DNA of 64,000 nucleotides from Acidimicrobiia bacterium (GTDB lineage Bacteria > Actinomycetota > Acidimicrobiia > UBA2766), in contig JAIBAC010000002.1 of assembly GCA_019695375.1 (NCBI GenBank), positions 700 through 64,699 on the forward strand, written 5' to 3'. The stretch's first letter is position 1, and each line of letters opens with the position of its first letter. The notes below the pieces were generated by a model that saw only the letters and a list, made by a program, of their open reading frames with translations, searched no databases and was not told the origin of the DNA. Positions 1-44,369 of the stretch are shown here, piece by piece. A program made the position numbers and the translations under genes.

Positions 1-936
1 GGCGTTCGGGCGCCTGTCCTCGATGTAGCCCTTCTGGTCCTTCTCGACCTGCCACGGGATCCGCACCGAGGCACCGCGGTCGGACACCCCGTAGCTGTAC
101 TCGGTCCAAGGAGCGGTCTCGTGTAGGCCCGTGAGGCGCCGCTCGATGCCGTAGCCGTAGCTCTCGACGTGCTCGGTGGCCCGCTTGCCGAGCGCCTCGC
201 ACGCCGTGATGATCGCGTCGTAGCCCTCGCGCATCGCCTTCGTGGAGAAGTTCGTGTGCGCGCCGGCCCCGTTCCAGTCGCCCTGGACCGGCTTGGGGTC
301 GAGCGTGGCGGCGACGTCGAAGTCCTCCGCGACCCTGTACAGGAGCCAGCGAGACACCCAGATCTGGTCGGACACCTCGAGCGGGCTGAGCGGGCCGATC
401 TGGTACTCCCACTGGCCCATCATGACCTCGGCGTTGGTCCCGCTGATGCCGAGACCGGCGGTCATGCACGCCTCGGTGTGGGCCTCGACTATGTCGCGCC
501 CGAAGATCTCGTCGGCGCCGACACCGCAGTAGTAGCCACCCTGAGGGGCGGGGAACCCACCGGAAGGCCAGCCGAAGGGACGGCCGTCCTTGAAGAACGT
601 GTACTCCTGTTCGATTCCGAACAGGGGCTCCTGTCCCGCGAACTTCTCCGCGACCGCCGCACATGCAGCACGCGTGTTCGACTCGTGCGGGCTCATGTCG
701 GTGTTGAGGACCTCGGCCATGACGAGCACGTCGTCGCCGCCGCGGATCGGGTCGGGACACGAGAAGACCGGGCGCAGCACGCAGTCCGAGGCGCTGCCGG
801 GCGCCTGGTTCGTGCTCGAGCCGTCGAAGCCCCAGATGGGCAGGTCGGCGCCATCAGGCACGATCTTGGTCTTCGAACGCAGGTGTGGTGTGGGGTCGGT
901 GCCGTCGATCCAGATGTACTCGGCGCGGTAAGGCAT
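1..936 (-). CDS. glnII: Glutamine synthetase type II (eukaryote-like GSII), C-terminus runs off the window start
   Basis: Reverse-strand translation from ATG at 936..934 gives MPYRAEYIWIDGTDPTPHLRSKTKI..., the characteristic GSII N-terminus. The ORF is open to position 1. Confidence 0.85.
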   Translation of the reverse strand, partial: MPYRAEYIWIDGTDPTPHLRSKTKIVPDGADLPIWGFDGSSTNQAPGSASDCVLRPVFSCPDPIRGGDDVLVMAEVLNTDMSPHESNTRAACAAVAEKFAGQEPLFGIEQEYTFFKDGRPFGWPSGGFPAPQGGYYCGVGADEIFGRDIVEAHTEACMTAGLGISGTNAEVMMGQWEYQIGPLSPLEVSDQIWVSRWLLYRVAEDFDVAATLDPKPVQGDWNGAGAHTNFSTKAMREGYDAIITACEALGKRATEHVESYGYGIERRLTGLHETAPWTEYSYGVSDRGASVRIPWQVEKDQKGYIEDRRPNA

Positions 937-971
937 GTGGTTGCTCCATCCGTCTGGCTGCTGCGAGCAGG

Positions 972-1026
972 TTTCCACGGCGCGATTTCCCGACCGTTGC
1001 AGTCATGTGAACGGCGTGTGAACGGA
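972..1026 (-). promoter_or_regulatory. Candidate GlnR-box cluster 36-90 bp upstream of glnII, with repeated GTTCAC and GAAAC/GAAAT half-sites
   Basis: Minus-strand reading: GTTCAC-acgcc-GTTCAC-atgact-GCAAC-ggtcgg-GAAAT-cgcgccgtg-GAAAC. Resembles the actinobacterial GlnR a/b-site pattern GTnAC-n6-GaAAC. Confidence 0.3.
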
Positions 1027-1038
1027 CACGGGACGCGA

Positions 1039-1141
1039 TCTCGGCGCGCTCGTGGACACCGAAGCGCGTCTCGGCGCGCACGTGGCACCGTGTTGCCATC
1101 TGCGCGCCGAGACCGGTCGGGGCGTCCGTCAGCGCGCCGAG
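1039..1141. repeat. Copy A of a ~103-bp nested-palindrome repeat: TCTCGGCGCG(C) x2, loop, GCGCGCCGAGA x2
   Basis: Near-identical copy at 1680..1782. Inner stem TCTCGGCGCGC/GCGCGCCGAGA with loop ACGTGGCACCGTGTTGCC. Confidence 0.7.
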
Positions 1142-1171
1142 AACACCAGCGCAAGCGGGCAATATGGGGAC

Positions 1172-1636
1172 ATGGCGATCTCGAAGCAGGCGGTTCAGGC
1201 GTTCACGGGGGACTACCAGTCGGTGTTCGGGGCGGTGTGTGCCGCGCTGCAGGCCGAGAGAATGCAGATCTTGTCGGCCGACCCCGCCACGGGGGTGATC
1301 AACGCGTCGGGGTCGATGTCGTGGATCTCCTGGGGCGAGAACATCGTGATCGGCGTCGGTGCCGACCCGGCGGGCACGGTGTCGGTGAGCCTGCGGTCGA
1401 AGTTGAAGTTCGGGCTCGTGGACTGGGGTAAGAACCAGCAGAACATCAACAGGCTGTTCGGCCGCATCGGTGCCTTCGTCCAGAACCCGGCCATGATCCA
1501 GGCGCAGGCAGCCCAAGCCGGTGCGTGGCATCCCGACCCGCACGGCCGCCACGAGCTCCGCTACTGGGACGGCACCGTCTGGACCGACCACGTCAGCGAC
1601 GACGGCCAGGTGTCGACGGACCCGGTAGGTGCCTGA
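1172..1636 (+). CDS. Hypothetical protein with C-terminal DUF2510-like motif (WHPDPHGRHELRYWDGTVWTDHV)
   Basis: ORF-track frame 1052..1636. First ATG is at 1172 (MAISKQAVQ...). The C-terminus matches the actinobacterial DUF2510 signature. Flanked by repeat copies A and B. Confidence 0.55.
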   Translation: MAISKQAVQAFTGDYQSVFGAVCAALQAERMQILSADPATGVINASGSMSWISWGENIVIGVGADPAGTVSVSLRSKLKFGLVDWGKNQQNINRLFGRIGAFVQNPAMIQAQAAQAGAWHPDPHGRHELRYWDGTVWTDHVSDDGQVSTDPVGA

Positions 1637-1679
1637 GGCACCTCCGTTCACCACCCCCAGCGAAACATCAAACTCCACG

Positions 1680-1782
1680 GTCTCGGCGCGGATGTGGACA
1701 TCGGAGCAGGTCTCGGCGCGCACGTGGCACCGTGTTGCCGTCAGCGCGCCGAGACCGGGCGGGACGTCCGTCAGCGCGCCGA
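1680..1782. repeat. Copy B of the ~103-bp nested-palindrome repeat, in the convergent gap between the DUF2510 gene and nurA
   Basis: Aligns to 1039..1141 with about 8 mismatches. A partial third CCGAGACCGGG arm follows. Confidence 0.7.
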
Positions 1783-1808
1783 GACCGGGTGGGACGTACC
1801 TCGGTGGT

Positions 1809-2732
1809 TCATGCGGCCGCGGCGCGGCGCAACGCCCGGTAGAGGATCTCGCGGTCGCCGAGACGGCGTCTCAGCTGCGCCTCGAGCCCTGCGATCGGGT
1901 ACAGGTTCTGGGGCGCACGCGGTTCGCGGTGGTTGCGCGACGCGAACCGGACGACGGTCGCGGCAACGGCGTCGGCGAGCGATGCGACTTCGGCCGTCGA
2001 CCTGTCGGCGATGGTCTCGCAACGGATGCGGCCCGACAGCGGCGACCCGCCGTCCTCACCGGGGAGGCGCACGTACCAGCTGAGCATGGGCCGGCCCCAC
2101 GAGTCGAAGAGGAACAACGGCGTGCGCTCACCGGGCCGCAGGTCGCGCAGCACCGCCTGGCACTGCGGCGGCAGATACGCGGTCTGATGGGTCTTCACGT
2201 ACCCGAGCGCGCCGCGGACGTGGCCGCGCTGGCCCAGCGGGCCGTCGAGCACCACCAGGTCGGCTGCACCCGCATCGGCGGCGACGACGCCCTCGAGCGC
2301 CCCCATTTCGGTCTGCATGGCGAGGCTGAGCGACTCGACCGTGTCGTCGTGGGCGAGGTGGACTGCATACGCGCCCCAGCGGGTCTGCACGTCGTCGGCG
2401 TCGGAAGCGGTCGTGAACAGGCGCCGGCGCACCTCGGCGGCGACGACCTCGGCCTTGCCGTTGCAGCGCACCGCTCCCGCCGCGTAGCTGGCGCAGATCC
2501 CGTGGCGACCGGTGTCAGTGCCGTCGGTGTCGATCCAGACATGGGCGTCGATGCGTCGCACCCCGTCGACGAAGAGCACGTCGGCAATCGGCGCGGCTTG
2601 CGGCGCGATCGGCGCCCACGCCTGTGGGTCGACCTCGATGCCGGCGTCGACGTTCGCCGTGGTGGGTGCCAGGGCGGCGTCGTCGACGGGGCTGCCGTAC
2701 TCGGGCGCCCACGGTTCGACGTGGAACCTCAC
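1809..2732 (-). CDS. nurA: NurA-like 5'-3' nuclease (RNase-H-like), last gene of the herA-sbcD-sbcC-nurA string
   Basis: 307 aa. LFVDGVRRID matches the NurA motif-I (hhDGS-type) aspartate. Its start ATG overlaps the sbcC stop (ATGA at 2729..2732). Operon context matches the archaeal herA-mre11-rad50-nurA arrangement. Confidence 0.5.
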   Translation of the reverse strand: MRFHVEPWAPEYGSPVDDAALAPTTANVDAGIEVDPQAWAPIAPQAAPIADVLFVDGVRRIDAHVWIDTDGTDTGRHGICASYAAGAVRCNGKAEVVAAEVRRRLFTTASDADDVQTRWGAYAVHLAHDDTVESLSLAMQTEMGALEGVVAADAGAADLVVLDGPLGQRGHVRGALGYVKTHQTAYLPPQCQAVLRDLRPGERTPLFLFDSWGRPMLSWYVRLPGEDGGSPLSGRIRCETIADRSTAEVASLADAVAATVVRFASRNHREPRAPQNLYPIAGLEAQLRRRLGDREILYRALRRAAAA

Positions 2733-5134
2733 GACTCGATCCGCTCGACCGCGGAGCCGTTGGGGCCGTTGGACACCTCGAAACGCAGCGGCACGCGCTC
2801 GGCCAGGTCGCTGACGTGGGTCACGAGGCCGACCATGCGTCCGCCGGCACCGAGCTCCTCGATCGCAGCGGCGACGACGTCGAGGGTGTCGGCGTCGAGG
2901 GTGCCGAAGCCCTCGTCGAGGAAGAGCGACTCGAGGCGGGCCGCCCCGCGCGTAGCCATCGACGCGATGTGCTCACCGAGGGCGAGCGCCAGCGCGAGCG
3001 ACGCCAGGAACGTCTCGCCTCCCGACAACGTGCGCGCCGAGCGCGGCTGGTCGGCGTTGCGGTGGTCGATGACGTCGAACCCGCTCGCCTTGTCGTCGAG
3101 GGCGAGCGAGTACGCACCACCGGAGAGCTCCTCGAGGATCTCGCTCGCCCCGATCACGAGCTGCTCCTGGGCCTCGCGCTGCAGCCACGTCTGGAAGCCG
3201 TCGGTCTTGAGGTGGCGCCCGAGCGTGTCGGCGACCTTCCTCGCCGCCTCGAGGCCTGCCATCTCGGTGCGCAGCGAGCGCGCCTGCGCCAGGTTCGTCT
3301 CCGCGGTCGCATGCGCGATGCGGGCCTGCTCGGCGGCGCGGGGCACTCCGGCGGTGAGCCCGGCGACGTCGTCGACCTCGATGCCTATTTCTGCGGCTGC
3401 CGCGCAGAGCTCAGTGACGACCGCTGCCGCCGTCGACTCGGCCTTGGCGACGGCGGCCTCTGCACCGGCGAGCGCGTCTCTCTGCGCGGGCACGAGGTCA
3501 GCGGCCCAGCGCGCAAGTGCGGCCCAGTCGTCGCGCAGGTCCTCTTGGCCGGGCTCGGGCGGCGTCCAGGCGGCGACCCGGTCGCGGCCGGCGAGGAAGC
3601 GGCCGCGGGCGTCCTTGTCCGCCTTCTCTGCGCCGTCGAGGGCTTGACGCGCCTTGGCGTGGTCAGCGCGTGCGGTGTCGAACGTGGACGTAGCCGACCG
3701 CACCGTCTCTTCGAGCTCGGTCCGCCGCCTCTGCTGCTGGGCGCATTCGTCGGCGGTGGGAGCTTCGGCGAGCTCGGCGGCCAGCTCGGCCTCCTGCTCG
3801 TGCAGGCGCTGGAGCTGGCCGGCGGCATCACGGTGGTCGCGGGCGGCGGCGCTCGCGGTTGCCCGTGCCGCGTCGGCCTGGGCCTCGGCGTCCTGGAGCG
3901 CTGCCTGCGCGGCGGGCACCTCGGCCGGTGTGTCCAGGGACGGCACGGTGGTGACGGTCTGGGCGCAGACGGGGCAGGGCTCGCCGGGAGCGAGGGTCTC
4001 GGCGAGCGTGTGGGCGAGATGGCTGTCCTGCACGCTGCGCAGGTGGCGCCGCGCAACCTCGACCTGCTCGTCTGCCGCCTTTGCGGCAGTCGTCGCGTCG
4101 TCCTCGGCCGCAGCGAGTGGGGTCAGGGATTCCCCGAGGTCGTGGATCTGGGCCGCGAGCTTCGCGCGGCGCTCGTGCGCGGCTCTCACGCGGCCGAGCA
4201 CCCCCGCATCGGGGAGCTCGTCGACGGCGGCGGTCGCCTCGCGCAACGTGTCCGCAGCCGCAGCCTCGCGGGCTTCGGCCTCGGCGACGGCACGCCGCGC
4301 CACCGCGACGGCCTCGGCGATGTCGCCGATGCCGTCTGGCACCTGGACGGCACCGAGCACCGCGATCGCGTCGCTTGCAGTCGCGGCGTCATCGCGCCCG
4401 CGCCGCACGCTCTCCTGGAGTGCCTGCAACTGCGGTTCGGCTGTGCGCAGGCGCGCCTCGAGCGCCTCGGTCTCCCGGCAGCGCTGCGCCGCACCGGCCA
4501 CCAGCTCCTCCGATGCCGCGCCGATCTGCTCGAGCTTGCCGTCGAGAACCTTCACCTCGGTCGCGAGCGACGCTGCACGCTCGCGCGCTCGTTTGCCCAT
4601 CTGCTCGTACACCCCGAGGTCGAGGAGGCGCATGAGCAGGGCCTGACGGTCCTTGGGCTTGTCGAGCAGGAACTGCGCGAACTCGCCCTGGGGCAGCACC
4701 ACGCAGCGGGTGAAGTGCTCGAAGCCGAGTCCGAGCAGCCCCTCGACGGCTTTGGTCACCTCGTCGGCGGTTCCGGCGAGCACCTCGGGATCGCCGCCGC
4801 TGTGGACGCGCTCGAGGCGGGCCTCCTTGGTCGTGGCCCCCTTGCCCTTGGTGCGCCGCACGACCCGCGTGGCGACGTAGTCGTCACCACCGACGGAGAA
4901 CTCGAGACTGACGACCGCCTCGTTGCGGCTCTGGCTCACGACCGGGGCGACGGCACGCAGGTCGTCGTAGCGCGGCACCGCCCCGTAGAGGGCGAAGACG
5001 ATCGCGTCGATCAGGCTCGACTTACCCGCACCCGTGGGGCCGCAGAACGCGAACAGGTCGGCGCCGTCGAAGTCGACGACGGTGCGCCCGCGGAACGAGG
5101 TGAAGCCCTCGAGCTCAAGACGCCGCGGGCGCAT
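2729..5134 (-). CDS. sbcC: SbcC/Rad50 family ATPase (DNA double-strand break repair)
   Basis: Starts MRPRRLELEGFTSFRGRTVVDFDGADLFAFCGPTGAGKSS (Walker A). Zinc hook CPVC is present, with long coiled-coil Ala/Glu-rich regions. RBS GGAGGA lies upstream of ATG 5134. Overlaps the sbcD stop by 20 nt. Confidence 0.85.
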   Translation of the reverse strand: MRPRRLELEGFTSFRGRTVVDFDGADLFAFCGPTGAGKSSLIDAIVFALYGAVPRYDDLRAVAPVVSQSRNEAVVSLEFSVGGDDYVATRVVRRTKGKGATTKEARLERVHSGGDPEVLAGTADEVTKAVEGLLGLGFEHFTRCVVLPQGEFAQFLLDKPKDRQALLMRLLDLGVYEQMGKRARERAASLATEVKVLDGKLEQIGAASEELVAGAAQRCRETEALEARLRTAEPQLQALQESVRRGRDDAATASDAIAVLGAVQVPDGIGDIAEAVAVARRAVAEAEAREAAAADTLREATAAVDELPDAGVLGRVRAAHERRAKLAAQIHDLGESLTPLAAAEDDATTAAKAADEQVEVARRHLRSVQDSHLAHTLAETLAPGEPCPVCAQTVTTVPSLDTPAEVPAAQAALQDAEAQADAARATASAAARDHRDAAGQLQRLHEQEAELAAELAEAPTADECAQQQRRRTELEETVRSATSTFDTARADHAKARQALDGAEKADKDARGRFLAGRDRVAAWTPPEPGQEDLRDDWAALARWAADLVPAQRDALAGAEAAVAKAESTAAAVVTELCAAAAEIGIEVDDVAGLTAGVPRAAEQARIAHATAETNLAQARSLRTEMAGLEAARKVADTLGRHLKTDGFQTWLQREAQEQLVIGASEILEELSGGAYSLALDDKASGFDVIDHRNADQPRSARTLSGGETFLASLALALALGEHIASMATRGAARLESLFLDEGFGTLDADTLDVVAAAIEELGAGGRMVGLVTHVSDLAERVPLRFEVSNGPNGSAVERIES

Positions 5135-6272
5135 CGGCCTCCTCCATGAGCTCGTCGAAGAGGTCGAGGACCTGCGGGTCGGACGCCGCCCTCTCCTCCA
5201 AGTAGGCGGCGAAGAGCTCCCGCGGGGACTTGCCCACCCGCGACTCCACCGTCTTCGACTCGGGCCGCTGCGGGTCGTCGACCATGACGTCGACAGCCTC
5301 GGAAAAGATGTCGCGCACCTCGTCGGCGAGGCCGACCCGCGGCGCCTCCTTGATGCGGATGCGGAGGTAGGCGTCGCCGGTCGTCCCGGCGAGGGACTCG
5401 AGCTCGGCCATCGTGGCGCGGATGGTGCGCAGGGGCCGGCCGCTGCGCAGCGGTACTTCGCGCACCTGCGCTGGAACTCCCGGGGACGCCTCGACGACGA
5501 GGACCGATTTGGCGTCCTCCTTCTCGCCGAAGTCGAGCTGCAGCGGAGAGCCGCAGTAACGGACCGGGCATGCCGCCGGCAGGGACTGGCTGCGGTGCAG
5601 GTGGCCGAGGGCCACGTAGTGCAGTGAGCTGGGAAAGACCGTGGCTGCGACGCTGTAGTCGAAGACCGTGTGCGCGAGGCGCTCACCGCCGCCGTGGACG
5701 GCGTTGGTGATCGTCGTGTGGCCCAGCAGCACGTTGACCGATCCCGGGTCGAGGTCGGAGCAGAGCAGTGCGACGACTCGCGAGATGCGGTCGGCGTAGG
5801 TCTGGTTGTGCGCGTCGGCGTCCTTGCCGAGGAGGTCGGCGGCGTGGATCACGTGGCGTTGGGACAGGAACGGCAGCAGGGCAATGGCGAGACGCTCGCC
5901 CGACCTGGTCTCGATGTGCCGCACCCCGCCGCCGGCCGGTGCCTGGAAGCGGGTCTGGACGTGGACGCGCCCGAGCTCGAGCAGCGGTGCCACCGCTTCG
6001 AGGCGCCGCGGGTTGTCGTGGTTGCCGGAGACGACCACGACCTCGGCGCCGGTGGCGGCGAGGTCGAGGAGCGCCGCGTAGACGATCTCCTCCGCTTCGG
6101 GGCCGGGGGCCGCCGAGTCGTACAGGTCGCCGCCGACGAGGACGGCGTCGACCTCCTCGTCGCGGGCGATCGCGGCGACCTCCGCGAGCACCTCGCGGTG
6201 CTCGTCGGCGCGGGAGCGGCCCCGCAGCGTCTTACCGACGTGCCAGTCGGCCGTGTGCAGGAGCTTGATCAC
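5115..6272 (-). CDS. sbcD: SbcD/Mre11 nuclease (calcineurin-like phosphoesterase)
   Basis: MIKLLHTADWHVGKTL...GNHD motif. Start overlaps the herA stop (ATGA at 6269..6272). Confidence 0.9.
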   Translation of the reverse strand: MIKLLHTADWHVGKTLRGRSRADEHREVLAEVAAIARDEEVDAVLVGGDLYDSAAPGPEAEEIVYAALLDLAATGAEVVVVSGNHDNPRRLEAVAPLLELGRVHVQTRFQAPAGGGVRHIETRSGERLAIALLPFLSQRHVIHAADLLGKDADAHNQTYADRISRVVALLCSDLDPGSVNVLLGHTTITNAVHGGGERLAHTVFDYSVAATVFPSSLHYVALGHLHRSQSLPAACPVRYCGSPLQLDFGEKEDAKSVLVVEASPGVPAQVREVPLRSGRPLRTIRATMAELESLAGTTGDAYLRIRIKEAPRVGLADEVRDIFSEAVDVMVDDPQRPESKTVESRVGKSPRELFAAYLEERAASDPQVLDLFDELMEEADAPAAS

Positions 6273-8014
6273 GGCAGGCCCCTGAGCGGGTCGTCGTCGG
6301 GTGCGAGCGTCGATGCGGGGTTGTGTCCCGCCTCGGAGCTGCGCGAGGCCCAGGCGGGGAACGGGAACTGCACCATCAGCGGCACCGGCAGCTCGGGCTG
6401 GGTGACCAGCATCGTGCCGGGCTTGAGGATCGTCGACCGCTTGCGTTGCACATCGGGCAGGAAGCCGTACTCGTTGCGGGTGGCCTCGGCGCTGTCGAGG
6501 CGGCCCACGACGCGCATCGCGGCGTTGGCGATGATGCGTCGCTCGACCTCGCTGGCGGTCTGCTGGGCGCCGATGAGGATGACCCCGAGGGAGCGGCCGC
6601 GCTCGGCGATGTCGAGCAGAATCTCCTTGATCGGGCTCGACCCGTCGCGGGGGGCGTACCGGTTGAGCTCGTCGAGGACCACGAACTGCAGCGGGTGCGC
6701 CGTGCCCGAGCGTTCCTTGCGCTCGAACGCCCTGCGCAGCATCACACCGACGACGAAGCGCTTGGCGCGGTCGGCGAGGTTGTGCAGGTCGATCACGGTG
6801 ACCTGCTGGTTCTCGAGGTCGATCCGGTGGCGATCGGGGTTGGCGACGTCGGCGCGGACGAGGGGTTCGAGTGGCTTGACTGCCGCGTGGAGTCTGCGTA
6901 CGAACGCGCCGATGGTCCCGGCGCCGATCGCGCGGCCGGTCCAGCGGAACCGCTCCTCGACGTCGTCACCGTCGGGGTCGACGCGGTCGCCGATGAGGTC
7001 GACGAGCTCGCGGAGGGTGCGCACCGTCTCGCCGTCGATGGAGACCACCCCGTCTCCGACGGAGACCGCCGTCTTGAGCTTCGCGGTGACGTTGGAGACC
7101 ACGATCGTGTACTGCTGGCGGTCGTCCTCGGCGTCGGCGAAGAGGAACGGGAGCAGCTCCTGGTGGCAGAACTCCTCGATCGTCCAGAAGAACGAGGTGA
7201 CCCCGGCGGTGCGGCTCGACACGTCGGCGGTTGCGCTCGGGTCGTCGCGGCGCGGCGGCGCGTAGACCGCCACCGACGGGAACGGGCCGACGGGGAGTCC
7301 CATGCGCCCGTACGCGGCCTCGGCGTCCGCGTCGAGTCGGGTGTTGGCGTGGTCGAGGAAGAGGAGGTCCTCGCCCTTGACGTTGAAGATCAGCGCTTTG
7401 GTGTTGGCCGCGTCGGTGCCGAGCACGCCCGACGTGAACAGCGAGTAGAGCAGGAACGTGGCATAGGTGGTCTTGGTCGCGACGCCGGAGATGCCGCTGA
7501 TGTTGACGTGGCCACCGCGGGTGCCGTCGAGGAACTCGAGGTTGGCGAACACGGCGCCCTCGTCGCGGCTCAGCCCGATCGGCAGCCGCGCCTCCATGCC
7601 GTCGAAGAACAGGGCGGTGTCGCGCTCGTCGCCTTCGGCACGGCGCACCGGTGTGCCCGGCAGCGGCGGCACGAAGACCTCGGGCTCAACACGTGTGGTC
7701 TGCACGAGGGCGGCCTCGCTCACCTCGGCCGGGAGGACACCGTCGTCGACGAGGAAGACGTCGTTGTCGAAGCGGACACCGTCATGGCGTGCGCGCATGT
7801 CGCCGACGAGGCCGTACATCCGCACAGGGTCGCGTCCGGGCACCGCGCGCTCGAGCGCAACGACGTCGTCGAGCTGCAGGTACTGGCCCGGCGCGATCGC
7901 CACCCAGTACTCGAGGGGGGTGGCGTCATCGGTGCCGACGACGAGGCCGACCGGAGGTGCCGCATCCGGTATCGAGGAGTCCATCGACGAGACGTTACCA
8001 ACGCCCTGCGACAT
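6269..8014 (-). CDS. herA: HerA-like FtsK/HerA-superfamily ATPase (DUF87/helicase HerA)
   Basis: 581 aa. N-terminal barrel region followed by an ATPase domain. HerA-type arginine-finger region GRSLGVILIGAQQTASEVERRIIANAAMRVVGRL, with FVVLDELNRYAP Walker-B-like. Only 27 bp downstream of the padR stop. Confidence 0.7.
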   Translation of the reverse strand: MSQGVGNVSSMDSSIPDAAPPVGLVVGTDDATPLEYWVAIAPGQYLQLDDVVALERAVPGRDPVRMYGLVGDMRARHDGVRFDNDVFLVDDGVLPAEVSEAALVQTTRVEPEVFVPPLPGTPVRRAEGDERDTALFFDGMEARLPIGLSRDEGAVFANLEFLDGTRGGHVNISGISGVATKTTYATFLLYSLFTSGVLGTDAANTKALIFNVKGEDLLFLDHANTRLDADAEAAYGRMGLPVGPFPSVAVYAPPRRDDPSATADVSSRTAGVTSFFWTIEEFCHQELLPFLFADAEDDRQQYTIVVSNVTAKLKTAVSVGDGVVSIDGETVRTLRELVDLIGDRVDPDGDDVEERFRWTGRAIGAGTIGAFVRRLHAAVKPLEPLVRADVANPDRHRIDLENQQVTVIDLHNLADRAKRFVVGVMLRRAFERKERSGTAHPLQFVVLDELNRYAPRDGSSPIKEILLDIAERGRSLGVILIGAQQTASEVERRIIANAAMRVVGRLDSAEATRNEYGFLPDVQRKRSTILKPGTMLVTQPELPVPLMVQFPFPAWASRSSEAGHNPASTLAPDDDPLRGLP

Positions 8015-8041
8015 CGCCGCCCAGCCCTCGGGGCCGGCGGT

Positions 8042-8560
8042 TCAGGATTCGAGCAGCAGACGCAGGATCTCCCTGCGCGCCTCGGACAGGATCGTGCTGG
8101 TGCGCTCGACGTCCTCGGGGCGCCCGGTGACGGCGACCTGTTTCACGGCGAGCGAGAGGTCGCGCATCGCCACACGCAACCCCCCTTCCGCGCCGCGCCC
8201 GGCCATCGCCTCCCAGGGGCTCTCGTGGGCGGCGTTGCGCTCCCGCGCCTCGGCGACACCGGCGTCGGTGAGCTCGAAGACGCGCTTGCCGTCGACCTCG
8301 GCCGACGTGACCAGCCCCTCGTCGGCGAGCATCTGCAGGGACGGGTAGACCGAACCCGGGCTCGGTCGCCATCTCCCACCGGTCTTTGCTTCGAGCGCCT
8401 GGATCAGCTCGTAGCCGTGTGCGGGTCCGTCGAGCAGGGCGACGAGCAGCGCCGATCGCACGTTTCCGCGCCGGCCGCGTCCGCGCCCGGCTCGTGGGCC
8501 GCCGCCTCCTTGGCGCCTACCGCGGCGGCCGCTCCGGTTGTGCATCTGGTGTTCGTTCAT
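8042..8560 (-). CDS. PadR-family transcriptional regulator
   Basis: LLVALLDGPAHGYELIQALEAKTGGRWRPSPGSVYPSLQMLADEGLV is a typical PadR wHTH. Confidence 0.8.
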   Translation of the reverse strand: MNEHQMHNRSGRRGRRQGGGGPRAGRGRGRRGNVRSALLVALLDGPAHGYELIQALEAKTGGRWRPSPGSVYPSLQMLADEGLVTSAEVDGKRVFELTDAGVAEARERNAAHESPWEAMAGRGAEGGLRVAMRDLSLAVKQVAVTGRPEDVERTSTILSEARREILRLLLES

Positions 8561-8564
8561 ACAG

Positions 8565-8587
8565 TCACGATATATCGCGATACGTCA
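8565..8587. promoter_or_regulatory. AT-rich palindromic element (CGATATATCG overlapping ATCGCGAT), candidate PadR operator in the divergent intergenic region
   Basis: Perfect 10-bp and 8-bp palindromes form an AT-rich island in otherwise >70% GC DNA, immediately upstream of the padR start. Confidence 0.35.
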
Positions 8588-8645
8588 GGATTTCCAACCA
8601 GATCCCAGGGCAGGCGCCTCGTCGTGCGGTGTCGAACGCGTCGAG

Positions 8646-9305
8646 ATGGCGAAGCCGGCGTTGAGCCTGATCGCATGCGCACTGCTGGCCTTCGCGGCAA
8701 CCGGTGCCTGCGCAGGTGCCACGCGCGGGCACCTCCCGGCGACCAGCGCGGCGCAGACGGAATCGACCCTGCTCTACGCCGACGGGTCCGGCACGACCGG
8801 AGGCGGTGAGCCGTGGGAGGCCACCACCTCGACCGCCGTCGCGCCGACGTCGGCGCCGGCACCGGGCGCAGGTGTGCCGGGAGCGGGCATCTCAGCGCCC
8901 TGCGCATCGCAGGTGAGGCTCCCGGACCACGTCGACGGGTACACGGTCACGCCCGGGGACAGCGCCGCTCTCGGCCTGTTCGCGCTGCCGCCGGGGTTGC
9001 AGGGGACAGGGCTCAACCACGTGACACGTGGCGACGGCGCCGTCGTCGACCTCGTCTCCGTGAGCGGCGCGGCATACGTCTTCGGCGCCGCGCCGGACGC
9101 GACCGTGCTCGATCGATTCGCCCGCAGCGTCGGCATCTCGGGTCAACCGGCCGCGGTGGCGGTCGGCGCTCACCACGGGGTCGTGGTGCAGACGTCGACG
9201 GGATCGACGATGTACGCGTGGATGCCGTGCCGCGGCGCCGTGATGGCTGCCGCAGGCCGTGATGCGGCGATGACGGCGGACGTGGTGGCCCGCGTCAGCC
9301 GTTGA
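8646..9305 (+). CDS. Putative secreted or lipoprotein, hypothetical
   Basis: MAKPALSLIACALLAFAATGACAG is an N-terminal signal peptide with a cysteine. Ala/Gly/Thr-rich mature region. Confidence 0.5.
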   Translation: MAKPALSLIACALLAFAATGACAGATRGHLPATSAAQTESTLLYADGSGTTGGGEPWEATTSTAVAPTSAPAPGAGVPGAGISAPCASQVRLPDHVDGYTVTPGDSAALGLFALPPGLQGTGLNHVTRGDGAVVDLVSVSGAAYVFGAAPDATVLDRFARSVGISGQPAAVAVGAHHGVVVQTSTGSTMYAWMPCRGAVMAAAGRDAAMTADVVARVSR

Positions 9306-9684
9306 CGTCGATGGTCCCGGTCATCTGCGTCGGGTGGATCGCGCACCTGTAGGAGACCTTGCCCGTCACCGAGACGTCCGGTGACCAGGTGAACGTGCTG
9401 CCCGCGCCGATCGGGCCCGAGTCGAAAGACGCGCCCTCGGTGGCGACCATCTCGTGGGTCCCCTCGAGCACTGTCCAGGTCACGGGAGTGCCGGTGGTCG
9501 CCGTGATCGTCGGGGGATCGAACGCATAGTTGCGTACCGAGACCGCGACCGCGTCCGTGACACCCGGAGCCGTCGCCGGGGCTGCGGTCGTGGCGCCCGA
9601 GGGCTCGGAGCTGCAAGCCCCCATGAGGCTGGAAGCTGCCGCGACCACGCCCGCGGTCAACAACAGGACGGGTCGTCTCCACAT
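9295..9684 (-). CDS. Cupredoxin-like (plastocyanin/azurin-fold) secreted protein
   Basis: Signal peptide MWRRPVLLLTAGVVAAASSLMGAC. C-terminal YRCAIHPTQMTG is a type-1 copper-site-like C..H..M motif. Confidence 0.55.
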   Translation of the reverse strand: MWRRPVLLLTAGVVAAASSLMGACSSEPSGATTAAPATAPGVTDAVAVSVRNYAFDPPTITATTGTPVTWTVLEGTHEMVATEGASFDSGPIGAGSTFTWSPDVSVTGKVSYRCAIHPTQMTGTIDVNG

Positions 9685-9751
9685 GAGTCGCTCCGCTCGC
9701 ATCGGGGGTCGGCTGACAGCACCATTCTGGTGCGGGCGCGAGTGGATCCGC

Positions 9752-10492
9752 TCAGTAGCGCCCGAGAGCCGCGCGTGCGCTGCCGACCCGTGTCGAGGCA
9801 GTCGTCGCGGCGATGGTCGCGGTGGCGGTCGCCGGATGGGCCGCCTCGACCAACCGCGCCGCGGCGCTCGGCGCCTGTGGCGCATGCGACGCGGGCGGAG
9901 GCGCATATGGGTGGATGTCGGGTGTGGGAACCGGCGGTGGGGTGAGCGCCCCGAGCGCCATCGGCACGACGACCGCGTCCCGCGGTGACCCGTCGGGACC
10001 CGCGAACACCAGCGAGACCGAGTTGGTCGCGTCGGTCCGCACGGCTGTGCTGCGTGAGGCCACCGTGGTGGTGCCCATCCACAGCGTCACCCGCGTGCCG
10101 TCCTCGGCGACCTGCAGTGGAACCGCAAGTGGACCGAGGGCGACGGGACGCGTGAGCTCGACGAAGGCCTCCCATCCTCCGTAGGGCACGGCGCGCATGC
10201 CCGCGCGCGCCTCGATCGTGAGTGCGAAGCCGAACAGGTCGATGTTGGCCGTACCCACGGCGGTGAACTCCTGGGCGAGCCCGGATCCCTCGATCCACAG
10301 CGCGAGGTCGACGCCGTCCCACGACGCACAAGTGCGTGCGATCGCCGCGGTGTCGCTCAGCGTGACGGGCGTGTCCGCGCAGCCGCCCAGGGCGAGCGGT
10401 GCCGGGGCCGCGCGTGCGGGGGCCGCCTGCGCGGACACGAGTCCGAGGGCCGCGACGGAGGCCGCGACGGCGAATGCGAGGAAGCGTCTCAT
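9752..10492 (-). CDS. Secreted hypothetical protein
   Basis: MRRFLAFAVAASVAALGLVSAQAAPA is a signal peptide. Start placed at the internal ATG (10492) of ORF 9752..10798. Confidence 0.45.
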   Translation of the reverse strand: MRRFLAFAVAASVAALGLVSAQAAPARAAPAPLALGGCADTPVTLSDTAAIARTCASWDGVDLALWIEGSGLAQEFTAVGTANIDLFGFALTIEARAGMRAVPYGGWEAFVELTRPVALGPLAVPLQVAEDGTRVTLWMGTTTVASRSTAVRTDATNSVSLVFAGPDGSPRDAVVVPMALGALTPPPVPTPDIHPYAPPPASHAPQAPSAAARLVEAAHPATATATIAATTASTRVGSARAALGRY

Positions 10493-10539
10493 CCCCGGCG
10501 GATCGGCGCAGCCGGCCGCGGTATGAGCTGCCTGCGCCG

Positions 10540-11403
10540 CTAGCGACGCTGCATGCCGAACTGCACGACGACGAACATCACGAGGCGGTTGGTGCCCGCG
10601 AGGGGCCCAGTGGCCCAGCCGAGGCCGATGTAGCGATGACGGGGATCGAGCATGTTCGCCTTGTGCGGTGCCGAGTCCAAGAAGGCGGTCTGCACCACGT
10701 CTGCGGACGGCCGCACCGAGTAGGCGATGTTCTCGCCCCACCCGTTCCACGTCGCCGAGTCGGGTTCGCCGCCGGGGTCGCACTCGTTGGAGTGGCACAG
10801 CACACCGTGTTCTGCCATCCAGTCCGCGTGACGCTGGGCCGAGCGGATCAGGGAGAGGTCGAGCTGCAGCGGCTCGAGGCCGCGGCTCGTGCGCTGCGAG
10901 TTCGTCAGGTTGTACAGCCTCACCAGTTCGGGGCTCGCGAGATCGGCGGTGGTCGCTGCGCGTCCTGACGTCGCGGGTGCAGCACCGGATCCCGACGCGG
11001 CGCTGCCCGCAGCGTCCGAGCCGGCAGCGGAGCTGCTTCCGCCCTGGAGGCCTCCGAGGAGCCGGCTCAGCGGGTCTGAACCGGCATCACCCGCTGTCGT
11101 GTTCGGGTCCGCCAGGGGATCCGGTTCGCGCATGAACGCACCGTCGACACCGAACCCGCCGCTCACCTGAAGGCTCACTGGACGCGCGTCGTCGAGGCCG
11201 GCGGGCGATGAAGTGCGCGCCTCCTTGGTCGTCGAGGCGGAGAGGCTGGAGAAGATGACCGCCACGAGGACGAGCGCGGCGCCGACACCGAGCACAGCCG
11301 GCAGCGGGAATGCCCGCGCGAAACCCGAGTACCGGTTGCGCACGCGTCGCGCCACCTGCGGCACGACCCTGTTCAGGTCGGTGAGCTCGGTGGTGCGCGC
11401 CAT
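10540..11403 (-). CDS. CAP/SCP (PR-1-like) domain secreted protein
   Basis: CHSNECDPGG...FLDSAPHKANMLDPRHRYIGLGWA match CAP-domain motifs. TM/signal segment near the N-terminus. Start uncertain (11403 or 11469). Confidence 0.6.
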   Translation of the reverse strand: MARTTELTDLNRVVPQVARRVRNRYSGFARAFPLPAVLGVGAALVLVAVIFSSLSASTTKEARTSSPAGLDDARPVSLQVSGGFGVDGAFMREPDPLADPNTTAGDAGSDPLSRLLGGLQGGSSSAAGSDAAGSAASGSGAAPATSGRAATTADLASPELVRLYNLTNSQRTSRGLEPLQLDLSLIRSAQRHADWMAEHGVLCHSNECDPGGEPDSATWNGWGENIAYSVRPSADVVQTAFLDSAPHKANMLDPRHRYIGLGWATGPLAGTNRLVMFVVVQFGMQRR

Positions 11404-11611
11404 GCGGCGCTGGAAGCGGCGGTAGCCCGCGCCCACCGTGTCAGGGGCATGCGTCGGCCGGGATGGCATCGTCGCCAGGACTTCACGGACGTCACCCGCG
11501 AATCCTGCCGTTGCGCTCCCGCAGGCAGCGGCCAGAGCGGTTCAGCAGCCACCCCACTACCCTGGCACCTCGCGGGTCGACAGCGACGGCGACACCTCAC
11601 AGGCGGAAGCG

Positions 11612-12982
11612 ATGGCTCATTTCGAACGGCTGGCACCGGCAGACGCGCAGTTCCTCTACCAGGAGACACCGACGGCACACATGCACGTGGGTGGACTGGT
11701 GGTCTTCGACGACTCCGGCTTCGACCTCGCGGACGTGATGGCCCACACCGAGAGCCGGATGGCGCTCGTCCCGCGATTCCGCCAGAAGCTCATGTGGGTG
11801 CCCTACGGGTTCGGCCGTCCGGTGTGGGTCGACGACGCGGACTTCGACATCCGCTACCACGTGCGACACACCGGTCTGCCCCGACCTGGCGGCGAGCGTG
11901 AGCTGCTTGCGCTCATGGGACGCATCATGTCGGTGCAACTCGACCGCAAGCGACCGCTCTGGGAGATGTGGATCATCGACCTGCCCGACGAGCGCCGCGC
12001 GATGATCCACAAGACCCACCACGCGATGATCGACGGGATGAGCGGCGTCGACCTCGCCTCCGTCCTCCTCGACCTGACAGCCGAGGGTCAGGACCTCGGC
12101 CCGCCCACAGACAAGCCGCGGAGCGCGCCCACGAAGCCCGAGCTCCTCCGCGAGACCGTCGTGGAGCGGGCCACGCGCCCCGCCGAGGTGTGGCGCACAG
12201 CCGCACGCGCGACGCGAGGCCCGCGCGAGTTCCTCGGCCGCGCCCGCGAGGTCGGCGCCGGGGTCATGAGCTTCGGCAAGGCGCCCTTCCAGGTCGCACC
12301 GAAGACGTCGCTGTCGCAGCGCAACGGCCAGCACCGGCGCTACGGCGTCGTGCGAACCGACCTCGCCGACGTCAAGGTCGTGAAGAACCGCGTGGGATCG
12401 ACCGTCAACGACGTCGTCCTCGCCCTCGTGGCCGGCGGTTTGCGCCACCTGCTCCTCAGCCGCGGCGACGTCGTCGACGACCTCGTCATGCGCGCGTCGG
12501 TGCCCGTGTCGGTGCGCGAGGAGTCCGACAAGATGTCGATGGGCAACAAGGTGGCGGTGATGTTCGCCGAACTGCCGGTCGGTGAGCCCGACCCCGACGT
12601 CCGCCTCTCGCTCATCAAGGCGCACATGGGTCGTGCCAAAGACGGCAAGCAGGCACTCGGGGCCGACGCCATAATGCGTCTCGCCGACTTCGCACCGCCC
12701 ACGTTGCTCTCGCTCGCAGGCCGCGTGGTGGCGAACCAGTGGGTCATGAACCTGACCGTCACTAACGTCCCCGGCCCCCAGTTCCCGCTCTACTTCATGG
12801 GTGGGGCAGTGCACGAGATCCTGCCGATGGTGCCCCTCGTCGGCGAGACCAACATCGGCGTCGCGTGCCTGTCCTACAACGGAGCACTCGACTTCGGCCT
12901 CACCGGGGATTGGGACGCAGTTCCCGACCTCGACGTGTTCGCCGAGGGCATCGAGAAGACCCTCGCCGACTACCTGCGCTGA
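11612..12982 (+). CDS. Wax ester synthase/diacylglycerol acyltransferase (WS/DGAT)
   Basis: MAHFERLAPADAQFLYQETPTAHMHVGGL ... HHAMIDGMSG (HHxxxDG active site). Confidence 0.85.
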   Translation: MAHFERLAPADAQFLYQETPTAHMHVGGLVVFDDSGFDLADVMAHTESRMALVPRFRQKLMWVPYGFGRPVWVDDADFDIRYHVRHTGLPRPGGERELLALMGRIMSVQLDRKRPLWEMWIIDLPDERRAMIHKTHHAMIDGMSGVDLASVLLDLTAEGQDLGPPTDKPRSAPTKPELLRETVVERATRPAEVWRTAARATRGPREFLGRAREVGAGVMSFGKAPFQVAPKTSLSQRNGQHRRYGVVRTDLADVKVVKNRVGSTVNDVVLALVAGGLRHLLLSRGDVVDDLVMRASVPVSVREESDKMSMGNKVAVMFAELPVGEPDPDVRLSLIKAHMGRAKDGKQALGADAIMRLADFAPPTLLSLAGRVVANQWVMNLTVTNVPGPQFPLYFMGGAVHEILPMVPLVGETNIGVACLSYNGALDFGLTGDWDAVPDLDVFAEGIEKTLADYLR

Positions 12983-13126
12983 GAAGGCCAGGTGGCAGAC
13001 GGTTCCTAAATCACCCGAATCGGTCTAGCCTCTAGGTACCCACCCACATCACCCACGGAGAGGGCTGGTCCCCACCCGCCGGCTCTCTCCAATCGCCGGG
13101 GCCTGTTCACGGCTCTGGCCGACGCC

Positions 13127-13155
13127 GAGGCCCCGCCTGCAAACGGCGGGGCCTC
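13127..13155 (+). terminator. Intrinsic-terminator-like hairpin GAGGCCCCGCC-tgcaaac-GGCGGGGCCTC after the first WS/DGAT gene
   Basis: Perfect 11-bp stem with 7-nt loop, 145 bp downstream of the stop at 12982. Confidence 0.5.
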
Positions 13156-13302
13156 GCTCATCAACACACGAGGCGGTCGTGTTCCCCGTGTCCCTCCGCA
13201 CGAAGACGGCATCCGTGCTCTCGCGTCCGATGCCGTGGCGGCGTCGGTTGCACCGTCGTGCGCCGGCGGCAGAATGGTGTGCGCCGTCTATCGGGGGAGT
13301 CG

Positions 13303-14667
13303 ATGAGCTTCTACGAGAGGTTGTCGCCGCAGGACGTCTCGTTCCTCTACGCGGAGTCGGCAACGGCACAGATGCACGTCGGGTCGCTCGCGCTGCTCGA
13401 CGAGGCTGACTTCGGCTACGAGGACCTGTGCGACCTGATCGACACCAAGCTCGCGCTCGCGCCACGTTTGCGCCGCAAGCTCATGTGGGTGCCCTACGGC
13501 CAGGGGCGGCCGGTGTGGGTCGACGACGCCGACTTCGACATCCGCTACCACGTGCGCCACACCGGCCTGCCCCAGCCCGGAGGCCGTGAAGAACTGCTGA
13601 CGCTGTTCGGTCGTGTGATGAGCGTGCCGCTGGACCGCAAGCGGCCCCTCTGGGAGGTGTGGCTCGTCGACCAGCCCGGCGGCGCCAAGTCGGTCATCTA
13701 CAAGATCCACCACGCCATGGTCGACGGCATCAGCGGTGTCGACCTCGCAGTGGTGCTCTTCGACCTCGCACCCGACGCGGTGGCCCCCGAAGGGGGGTCG
13801 TTCGAACCGGAGCCGGCACCGTCGAAGCAACGCCTGGTGGTGGACAGCGTGATCGAGCGGTTCACGCGTCCAGCCGAGATCGTGCGTGGTCTCCGCGCGT
13901 CGATCCGCGCGCCGCGACACGCATACGAGGTGGCGGCACGCCGCGCGAAGGGTCTGCTCAGCCTCGGCGGATCGATCCAGAGCACGCAGACGACGTCGCT
14001 GTCGCGCACGGTCGGCGGACACCGGCGTTTCGAGACGGTCAGCCTCGCCCTCGCCGACGTCAAGGCTGTCAAGGCGCAGTACGGAACCACCGTGAACGAC
14101 GTCGTGCTGACGATCGTGGCAGGCGGGCTGCGCCACTACCTGCTCGAGCGTGGCGACGTCGTCGACGGGCCCGGACTCAAGGTCATGGTGCCGGTGTCGG
14201 TGCGTCCCGAGGCGGACCGGGGCACCTACGGCAACCAGGTGTCGATGATGCTCGTCACGCTGCCGGTCGGCGAGCCCGACGCGAGACAGGTGCTCGCCGC
14301 GATCCACGCCCAGACCGCGGCGCTCAAGGACTCGCACGAGGCGGAGGGTGCCGAGTCGCTGATGCGATCGTTCGACTACCTGCCGATGTTCTTCCTCAAC
14401 CTCGCTGCCCGTGGCGCCGCCGTGCAGAGCATCGTCAACCTCGTCGTCACCAACGTTCCAGGCCCGCAGTTCCCGCTCTACTGCCTCGGGGCGCGGATGC
14501 GCGAGGCGTACCCGTACGTGCCGCTGCTCGGCAAGATGGCCGTCGGTGTCGCGGTGCTCAGCTACGACGGCCAGCTCAACTTCGGCCTCAGCGGCGACTG
14601 GGACACCACAGCCGACCTCGCCGTGTTCGCCGAGGGCATCGAGAAGTCGCTCGGACAGCTCCGGTAG
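13303..14667 (+). CDS. Wax ester synthase/diacylglycerol acyltransferase (WS/DGAT), tandem paralog
   Basis: MSFYERLSPQDVSFLYAESATAQMHVG ... HHAMVDGISG. Confidence 0.85.
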   Translation: MSFYERLSPQDVSFLYAESATAQMHVGSLALLDEADFGYEDLCDLIDTKLALAPRLRRKLMWVPYGQGRPVWVDDADFDIRYHVRHTGLPQPGGREELLTLFGRVMSVPLDRKRPLWEVWLVDQPGGAKSVIYKIHHAMVDGISGVDLAVVLFDLAPDAVAPEGGSFEPEPAPSKQRLVVDSVIERFTRPAEIVRGLRASIRAPRHAYEVAARRAKGLLSLGGSIQSTQTTSLSRTVGGHRRFETVSLALADVKAVKAQYGTTVNDVVLTIVAGGLRHYLLERGDVVDGPGLKVMVPVSVRPEADRGTYGNQVSMMLVTLPVGEPDARQVLAAIHAQTAALKDSHEAEGAESLMRSFDYLPMFFLNLAARGAAVQSIVNLVVTNVPGPQFPLYCLGARMREAYPYVPLLGKMAVGVAVLSYDGQLNFGLSGDWDTTADLAVFAEGIEKSLGQLR

Positions 14668-44309: not shown

Positions 44310-44369
44310 AGTTATATCGTATCACGACATATATCCCTCCCCGAAAGCCGGCGAGTCGCGAGCCGGGGC

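Follow-up and report, generated by a model that had tools for sequence, protein, structure and literature searches.

The question raised by this locus is whether an actinobacterium carries a version of the archaeal end-resection operon herA-mre11-rad50-nurA, in which sbcD and sbcC take the places of mre11 and rad50, and how such a set of genes would be controlled. The locus lies in a 64-kb stretch of DNA, referred to here as the window, from a metagenome-assembled genome (MAG) of the class Acidimicrobiia (Actinomycetota), and all coordinates given below follow the numbering of that window. A first-pass annotation had described five minus-strand genes in the order padR > herA > sbcD > sbcC > nurA and had read them as an archaeal-style module, led by a PadR regulator and possibly directed against invading DNA. 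Our analysis points to a different reading, which we consider likely to be correct: herA, sbcD, sbcC and nurA form a four-gene operon of bacterial type with a PafBC-type promoter of its own, and padR stands outside that unit.

The five open reading frames (ORFs) are all present as first annotated, and exact matches at NCBI were found for four of the five proteins (MBX7158746-48 and MBX7158750). On the minus strand, herA occupies 6269-7984 (571 aa from the ATG at 7984), sbcD 5115-6272 (385 aa, GTG start), sbcC 2729-5134 (801 aa, ATG start with the Shine-Dalgarno sequence GGAGGAGG) and nurA 1809-2732 (307 aa, GTG start); padR lies at 8042-8560 (172 aa, ATG start). The four genes are tightly joined. 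The GTG start of sbcD sits on the herA stop in a 4-nt overlap, sbcD and sbcC share 20 nt, and the GTG start of nurA sits on the sbcC stop in a second 4-nt overlap. The lengths of these overlaps had been given correctly; the two short ones had been read as ATGA and in fact read GTGA. For sbcC, the longest ORF reaches 5686, its extension overlapping sbcD, and the start at 5134 is supported by the agreement of the SbcC N-terminus, the GGAGGAGG sequence and the NCBI model MBX7158747.1.

The start of herA also needed to be placed, as the longest ORF (6269-8014) would encode 581 aa. The ATG at 7984 aligns with the herA starts used in relatives and follows the -10 box described below by 7 nt, and the resulting 571-aa form is the one modeled by NCBI (MBX7158749.1). 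The sequence just upstream of this ATG is conserved among the window and two syntenic relatives, L084 and L087, and among the same three the stretch 8014-7985 is not conserved as protein. The start of herA is therefore most likely at 7984 rather than at 8014. The distance between padR and herA had been reported as 27 bp, a figure that applies to the ATG at 8014 only; for the better-supported ATG it is 57 nt.

A phmmer comparison with the PDB matched HerA to the Deinococcus radiodurans protein (drHerA, 7f6d_B) with E=1e-142, over query residues 17-315 and 354-562. The aligned part takes in the N-terminal HAS-barrel and is collinear over nearly the entire protein. In its RecA-like ATPase core, the Walker A motif GVATKT (167), the motif KGED (203) with the ASCE acidic residue and the Walker B motif VLDE (436) align with drHerA K175/T176, D220 and D487/E488, respectively. 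By the same method the HerA proteins of defense systems in the PDB scored about E=1e-3, and the archaeal HerA of Sulfolobus (4d2i) reached only E=0.33. Pfam returned no match for this protein, and the HerA models of NCBIfam and PADLOC matched weakly and in the C-terminal part only, the NCBIfam ones below their thresholds. Since the curated profile hidden Markov models of Pfam and NCBIfam fall short in this way, membership in the HerA family rests on the pairwise match to drHerA. The 581-aa ATPase that had been called HerA-like thus kept that assignment, and its 571-aa form is best described as a bacterial repair-type HerA, a hexameric translocase and ATPase for which hexamer formation, ATP hydrolysis and NurA binding are predicted. 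In two Microthrixaceae/Acidimicrobiales MAGs, L001 (about 9850-10000) and L002 (about 9860-10000), HerA is extended at its N-terminus: the leaderless start and the conserved core are separated by pentapeptides repeated in tandem (APEQH/APGQH), for which DNA repeats of the CAACACGCCCCCGGG type code.

For the 307-aa protein the proposed NurA fold was borne out by structure prediction. An AlphaFold2 model built with 48 homologs (predicted local distance difference test score 88.8, predicted TM-score 0.87) gave as its top Foldseek match the NurA of D. radiodurans (drNurA, 7f6d_G, E=7.8e-18, TM 0.73/0.68), followed by Thermotoga TM1739 (1zup, E=7e-14), and phmmer ranked the same two proteins (7f6d_H at 7.8e-22 and 1zup at 1.3e-5). 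A weak Foldseek match to the TdpAB chain 8wfd_G was also obtained. Residues D56, E147 and D163 are invariant among the 48 homologs. D56 aligns with D53 of drNurA (D73 in the tagged PDB chain), and the D53A mutant of drNurA is nuclease-inactive (PMC9960219); E147 and D163 would be equivalent to metal ligands. The Pfam NurA model PF09376 gave 16.8 bits, under its cut-off of 21 bits, and several homologs at 50-55% identity do carry PF09376 or the name NurA at NCBI. This Pfam model was presumably built mainly on archaeal sequences. Altogether, the model identifies the protein as a bacterial-type NurA with an RNase H-like fold, and nuclease activity is predicted. Its homologs fall into at least 4325 clusters at E<=1e-5.

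Profile searches, which the first-pass annotation had proposed for all four proteins, also covered the remaining two. SbcD scored 185 bits with TIGR00619 (sbcd) against a cut-off of 77.65; in Pfam it matched Metallophos, and SbcD_C at 26.3 bits against a cut-off of 24.4. All five phosphoesterase motifs are present: DWH (9), GDLYD (48), GNHD (83), LGH (183) and GHLH (223). SbcC matched TIGR00618 (sbcc) with E=3.4e-89 and 300 bits, under the full-length cut-off of 478.5 bits, and matched the Pfam families AAA_23 and SbcC_Walker_B above their cut-offs. Its Walker A motif GPTGAGKS (32), central zinc hook CPVC (387), signature LSGGE (703), Walker B motif LFLDEG (737) and H-loop THV (772) were all found. 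With 801 aa compared with 1048 aa in the Escherichia coli chain, SbcC would have a shorter coiled coil than its E. coli counterpart, and the score below the TIGR00618 cut-off is consistent with this. By these motifs and scores, SbcC and SbcD are complete and bacterial in type.

The four assignments bear on the possibility that an archaeal herA-mre11-rad50-nurA operon was recently transferred into an actinobacterium. The gene order is identical to that of the Sulfolobales operon (named in PMC10470591), and the HerA of Thermus has been described as archaeal in origin (PMC5448004), but the proteins themselves do not follow. Bacterial models score far higher than archaeal ones on SbcD (185-190 bits for sbcd against at most 49 bits for Mre11) and on SbcC (300 bits for sbcc against at most 96 bits for Rad50), and the E. 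coli subunits are much better PDB matches than archaeal Mre11 and Rad50 (SbcD 2.4e-30 against about 1e-11 for archaeal Mre11; SbcC 3.6e-46). The negligible similarity to Sulfolobus HerA and the bacterial structures, drNurA and TM1739, found as the best folds for the NurA model argue in the same direction. Additionally, the G+C content of the cluster is uniform with that of its flanks, its codon bias is native, and at least 80 species share the operon (HerA identity 66-74%). Recent archaeal transfer is thus highly improbable. The description of the locus as an archaeal-style module holds for the gene order, which equals the crenarchaeal one, and fails for the proteins, all four of which are bacterial in type; bacterial models or structures are the best matches for every one of them, which does not place them in the archaeal clades.

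The four-gene unit was found to be widely conserved. A scan in which each GTDB species was represented by a single genome yielded 246 confirmed relatives of HerA; the 80 best, with HerA identities of 66-74%, were kept. These come mostly from Acidimicrobiia and also from Euzebyaceae, Egibacteraceae, Nitriliruptorales and Thermoleophilia, and they include the complete genome of Actinospongicola halichondriae. The order herA-sbcD-sbcC-nurA on one strand was present in every related genome locus whose sequence extended far enough downstream, and the closest relatives share the identical overlaps of 4, 20 and 4 nt. The same order occurs on a Streptomyces linear plasmid and in Nonomuraea with HerA at 57% identity; on a conjugative plasmid of the cyanobacterium Sphaerospermopsis (L083) the order is nurA-herA-sbcD-sbcC. 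A conserved fifth gene was sought both upstream and downstream of the cluster and none was found, the largest cluster of genes downstream of nurA comprising 8 of 54 loci. A few loci have inserted unrelated genes, metabolic or membrane and mostly on the opposite strand, that separate herA from sbcD or sbcC from nurA. The genes herA, sbcD, sbcC and nurA are a four-gene unit across Acidimicrobiia, Nitriliruptoria, Thermoleophilia and some Actinomycetes, and the level of HerA conservation over at least 80 species is consistent with old vertical inheritance.

Two contigs with a typical actinobacterial-type herA-sbcD-sbcC(-nurA) cluster, L073 and L078, encode HerA at 68% identity and are labelled as Gammaproteobacteria and Longimicrobiales MAGs; mis-binning or transfer could account for these labels. 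On the Streptomyces sp. BB1-1-1 linear plasmid (L081, NZ_CP134205.1, 1-7328), the cluster adjoins a divergent gene for an ImmA/IrrE-family metalloprotease, which recalls the IrrE/DdrO damage switch of Deinococcus, and Wadjet-like genes (TIGR02680, TIGR02678 and DUF2397) lie beside it.

It was next to be asked whether padR belongs to this unit. Its product is a PadR-family winged-helix regulator (Pfam PadR, 62.8 bits). The case for padR as the first gene of a five-gene operon, with a product that would keep herA-sbcD-sbcC-nurA repressed in the absence of an inducing signal, draws on its position, on the same strand and 57 nt upstream of herA (27 nt from the alternative ATG), on the lack of a convincing terminator between the two genes, and on a palindromic candidate operator at the padR promoter. 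The comparison with relatives points the other way. A search of the 3.5 kb preceding herA in the 80 related loci (tblastn at E<=1e-5; blastp of upstream ORFs at E<=10) returned no PadR homolog, and the four-gene order was retained without it. What precedes herA varies from one relative to the next. Same-strand ORFs in that position were considered as PadR candidates and set aside as unrelated (PIN-like, GNAT-like, methyltransferase-like and others) by a reading of their sequences rather than by profile searches.

Among the two closest syntenic relatives, both of which lack a PadR gene upstream of herA, L084 is the closest with a long contig. Its NurA is 84% identical to that of the window, it shares the flanking WS/DGAT, CAP and glutamine-synthetase-like genes, and directly upstream of its herA it has a small cupredoxin-like gene and no padR. 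A blastn comparison of L084 with the window showed homology running from the cupredoxin gene (9628-9295) straight to 8013, so that 1281 nt in the window (8014-9294) stand against 36 nt in L084. This segment holds padR and a divergent ORF for a secreted or lipoprotein-like product (8643-9305, plus strand) with no Pfam match. Because padR is missing from L084 and likewise from L087, which is more distant and serves as an outgroup, the simplest reading of 8014-9294 is an insertion in the lineage of the window. It ends exactly upstream of the conserved herA promoter, which herA keeps downstream of padR. The proposal of a PadR-led operon does not survive these comparisons and is unlikely; padR adjoins the conserved module without being part of it and is best seen as a recent, lineage-specific passenger.

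What PadR itself may control is suggested by the AT-rich palindrome reported at the head of padR, which does exist. The element TATCGCGATATATCG (TATCG/CGATA/TATCG; 8568-8582, minus strand) contains two overlapping 10-bp perfect palindromes and, self-overlaps aside, has no second occurrence in the 64 kb of the window when up to 3 mismatches are allowed. It lies in the 82-bp intergenic region between padR and the divergent ORF and overlaps a candidate -10 box, TATCGT (8572-8567), 6 nt before the padR ATG. No copy of it was found near the herA promoter (7985-8041). These features make TATCGCGATATATCG a plausible candidate auto-operator, and PadR would most likely regulate itself, the divergent secreted-protein gene or both. 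A terminator between padR and herA was also looked for, and the only candidate, a small G+C hairpin with z = -1.3 and no U-tail, was no better than shuffled sequences. The contribution of padR to herA would at most be read-through transcription in one lineage. In another relative, L010, a different PadR-family gene (PadR and Vir_act_alpha_C; 11697-12446, minus strand) lies between herA and sbcD, together with the gene of a small membrane protein that L016 has as well. The sequence of this PadR shows no relation to that of the PadR of the window, and the presence of its gene inside the L010 cluster is treated here as coincidence.

With padR set apart, the control of the four genes was sought directly upstream of herA. 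The predicted operon promoter (7985-8013, minus strand), which would be a hybrid of the PafBC/RecA-NDp type with no -35 box, consists of a -26 element TGTCGC (8013-8008), a 10-nt spacer, a -10 element TAACGT (7997-7992) and 7 nt to the ATG at 7984, and reads TGTCGC-AGGGCGTTGG-TAACGT-CTCGTCG-ATG (8013-7982). Of the 86 loci, 66 have a TANNNT box 6-8 nt before an in-frame herA start, where the background is 0.4% per position, and this short distance from box to start codon is the reason for predicting a leaderless transcript. Alignment of the herA upstream regions gave the consensus tGTCACAc-N8-TAnnnT, and a search of the 200 nt before the HerA core found GTCR-N11-TANNNT in 50 of 86 loci compared with 0.8% of random windows. 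The published RecA-NDp motif is tTGTCRgtg-8nt-TannnT (PMC5656591) and the in vivo PafBC consensus is tGTCgg(N10)tA(N3)T, where PafBC makes contact with a strictly conserved GTC at -26 and takes the place of the -35 contact (PMC8635444). The herA promoter motif agrees with these published consensus forms in both core and spacing.

The distribution of the motif was examined by a strict scan of the 1.43 Mb of related loci and the window for TGTCR-N11-TANNNT followed 5-9 nt on by the start codon of a real ORF. All 34 instances precede repair genes, and 29 of them belong to herA. Two precede sbcD (L004:15164 and L016:12326) at loci where an insertion separates sbcD from herA; in a split operon, the second part can have a promoter motif of its own. 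The other three stand before genes for a RecQ-family helicase (L018), RmuC (L066) and an SbcD-like phosphoesterase paralog (L068), all on the minus strand. Since every strict instance precedes a gene of this kind, the motif marks recombination and repair genes in these organisms, and its distribution suggests a definable damage regulon in Acidimicrobiia. One second, relaxed match in the window (44300-44320, plus strand) is followed by no gene and is no more than chance would produce.

The remaining transcriptional signals fit a single unit. A scan of 1400-9400 for the sigma-70 -35/-10 consensus gave zero matches, a result that fits a promoter without a -35 box and is uninformative alone, and inside the cluster neither a sigma-70-type promoter nor a credible terminator was found. 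The overlapping starts and stops, the single conserved promoter upstream and a hairpin downstream all favor one transcript. From these features we infer that transcription of the operon begins at the herA promoter and gives a leaderless mRNA; the promoter is probably of the PafBC class that serves the RecA-independent damage response of Actinobacteria, so that the operon would probably be induced by damage.

The downstream hairpin follows the nurA stop (1661-1803, minus strand). It is long and stable, with a U-rich tail and a folding energy of -85.6 kcal/mol for the RNA (z = -5.7 against shuffled sequences), and it contains a terminator-like site at 1692-1674 with the tail GTTTGATGTT. It is a probable 3' end or stabilizer of the operon transcript. 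The hairpin comprises one copy of a 107-nt palindromic repeat element, and no known RNA family was detected in positions 1-12000 of the window.

The repeat element itself is an imperfect palindrome present in two copies that are 89% identical (1036-1142 and 1678-1784, within the region 1026-1827), spaced 642 nt apart and flanking a DUF2510-containing ORF (about 1052-1636, plus strand). Each copy contains four GGTCTCGGCGCGC 13-mers at a spacing of 30 nt, two forward and then two reverse. This 13-mer is over-represented, with 10 matches in the window where 1.9 would be expected; the two palindrome copies account for 8 of them. The palindrome region measures 802 nt in the window and 233 nt in L084, an excess of about 570-640 nt.

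A working model of the operon can be outlined from these observations and from its characterized homologs. DNA damage would activate a PafBC-like regulator with a WYL domain, and the housekeeping polymerase would then initiate at the herA ATG to give one leaderless mRNA, from which the four proteins would be made with translational coupling. By analogy with archaea and D. radiodurans, SbcCD would bind, recognize and open DNA ends, such as blocked ends and hairpins. A HerA hexamer would translocate the duplex into a NurA dimer (HerA6-NurA2), in which the strands would be split on the NurA pin, and degradation by NurA would leave 3' tails for RecA. The D. radiodurans structure is the source of this mechanism for the homologous NurA-HerA complex (PMC9960219).

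Several observations weigh against this reading of the operon as a damage-induced resection unit. In 36 of the 86 loci herA is not preceded by the strict motif, some of these having variants such as TGTCC in L087, and a search ahead of herA found no PafBC-type motif in the copies from Streptomyces, Nonomuraea and cyanobacteria. Given the weak hairpin in the spacer, transcription may also read through from padR into herA. We know of no bacterium in which a physical interaction among SbcCD, HerA and NurA has been demonstrated. Furthermore, deletion of nurA-herA in D. radiodurans increased resistance to ultraviolet light and mitomycin C, and the authors of that study doubted that NurA-HerA carries out efficient resection in vivo (PMC9960219).

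A different function could be imagined for the same proteins, namely a nuclease machine that destroys invading linear DNA of plasmids or phages instead of repairing the chromosome. HerA-family ATPases are core parts of defense systems such as Sir2-HerA and DUF4297-HerA, and HerA and SbcC of the window give PADLOC matches to HerA, mad8, mad3 and LmuB; these matches are, however, weak (E=1e-10 or worse for HerA) and concern generic ATPase parts only, and the defense HerA proteins of the PDB, at about E=1e-3, are far behind the repair-type drHerA at 1e-142. The Streptomyces sp. BB1-1-1 linear-plasmid copy stands next to its Wadjet-like TIGR02680/TIGR02678/DUF2397 genes and ImmA/IrrE protease gene, the cyanobacterial copy is on a conjugative plasmid, and NurA has the weak structural match to TdpAB chain 8wfd_G. 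The surroundings in the window are of another kind. The neighbors are housekeeping genes (WS/DGAT, GlnE and a CAP-domain protein of the cysteine-rich secretory family), synteny with relatives is conserved, and the G+C content equals that of the surroundings. A scan of viral contigs gave no relative and a phage collection gave two distant partial matches only. The damage-type promoter motif is moreover shared with recQ, rmuC and sbcD genes. A role as an anti-invader module, which had been suggested at first, finds little support here and we regard it as unlikely, and the operon with its own PafBC-type promoter is better understood as a repair unit.

Among the neighboring genes, a cupredoxin-like lipoprotein gene (9295-9669, minus strand) lies upstream of the insertion; it has no Pfam match and was recognized through its L084 homolog. 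Beyond it, in the region 11438-14667, are two WS/DGAT wax-ester synthase paralogs in tandem, and this synteny is common to L084 and L087.

The comparison with known systems begins with the archaeal operon of Sulfolobus/Saccharolobus and Pyrococcus, which the locus resembles in its four protein families, its gene order and its context of DNA damage. The same division of labor would be expected, with end recognition by Mre11-Rad50 and long-range resection by HerA-NurA. In S. acidocaldarius, herA, mre11, rad50 and nurA are co-transcribed (PMC2288612), and co-transcription is predicted from sequence for the genes described here. The differences are that the four proteins of the window are bacterial in type and that a PafBC-type promoter is apparent here, a promoter that archaea do not have.

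The closest characterized homologs are NurA-HerA of D. radiodurans (PDB 7f6d; DR_0836/DR_0837) and NurA-HepA of Thermus; the Walker motifs and the catalytic aspartate are conserved. In Deinococcus and Thermus, nurA-herA is a two-gene arrangement without an adjacent sbcCD, whereas in the window sbcD and sbcC lie between herA and nurA. The bacterial drNurA differs in its mode of dimerization and has a mainly ionic interface with HerA (PMC9960219). According to the same source, the bacterial complex is present "only in a few bacteria" (PMC9960219), which contrasts with the at least 80 actinobacterial species found here and the at least 4325 clusters of NurA homologs. Linkage of bacterial HerA/NurA to SbcCD is seen as well in Oceanithermus profundus (PMC5448004, in a passing mention) and on the Sphaerospermopsis plasmid, both of them in the order nurA-herA-sbcD-sbcC rather than the actinobacterial herA-sbcD-sbcC-nurA.

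For SbcC and SbcD, the best solved relative of both subunits is E. coli SbcCD (PDB 6s6v), with which the proteins of the window share the nuclease and ABC-ATPase motifs and the CxxC zinc hook; they differ from it in the shorter SbcC and in their place within an operon with HerA and NurA. The Sir2-HerA, DUF4297-HerA and TdpAB systems likewise combine a HerA-family hexameric ATPase with an effector nuclease or NADase, and the weak fold match between NurA and TdpAB belongs with this likeness. The similarity is marginal, however, at about E=1e-3, and partners, genomic context and promoter are different.

The PafBC/RecA-NDp regulon of mycobacteria and other Actinobacteria shares with the locus the arrangement tGTC(R)-N11-TAnnnT, the lack of a -35 box, the strict GTC and an identical spacing, and in the loci studied the motif precedes recombination and repair genes only. 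The bases after GTC differ, being CAC or CAG here and gg or gtg in mycobacteria. In the passages of the PafBC papers considered here, regulon tables aside, herA and nurA were not encountered, and sbcC and sbcD do not occur in those of PMC5656591.

The archaeal herA-mre11-rad50-nurA operon, bacterial NurA-HerA and the linkage to sbcCD in Oceanithermus are known already, and the locus of the window is a further member of this series. A literature search, with Constantinesco 2004 and Iyer 2004 outside its scope, did not return the breadth of the operon across Actinomycetota in the archaeal order or its PafBC-type promoter. The HerA-NurA/Mre11-Rad50 module is treated as an archaeal hallmark, and here it is a conserved operon in at least 80 actinobacterial species. 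The reading of the locus is also corrected, in that PadR is better taken as the passenger of a recent insertion than as a master regulator. As a broader proposal, to which we lean slightly less than to its opposite, many Actinomycetota may possess a dedicated, damage-induced resection machine in which SbcCD and HerA-NurA act in one pathway under PafBC control. If true, a bacterial counterpart of the archaeal system would have been largely unrecognized so far, and the proposal would make predictions that can be tested in culturable bacteria, namely induction by damage that depends on PafBC, and a physical or functional link between SbcCD and HerA-NurA. The coupling of Mre11-Rad50 with HerA-NurA would then be either very ancient or convergent in bacteria and not an archaeal speciality, and the actinobacterial operon would stand as the counterpart of archaeal MR-HerA-NurA.

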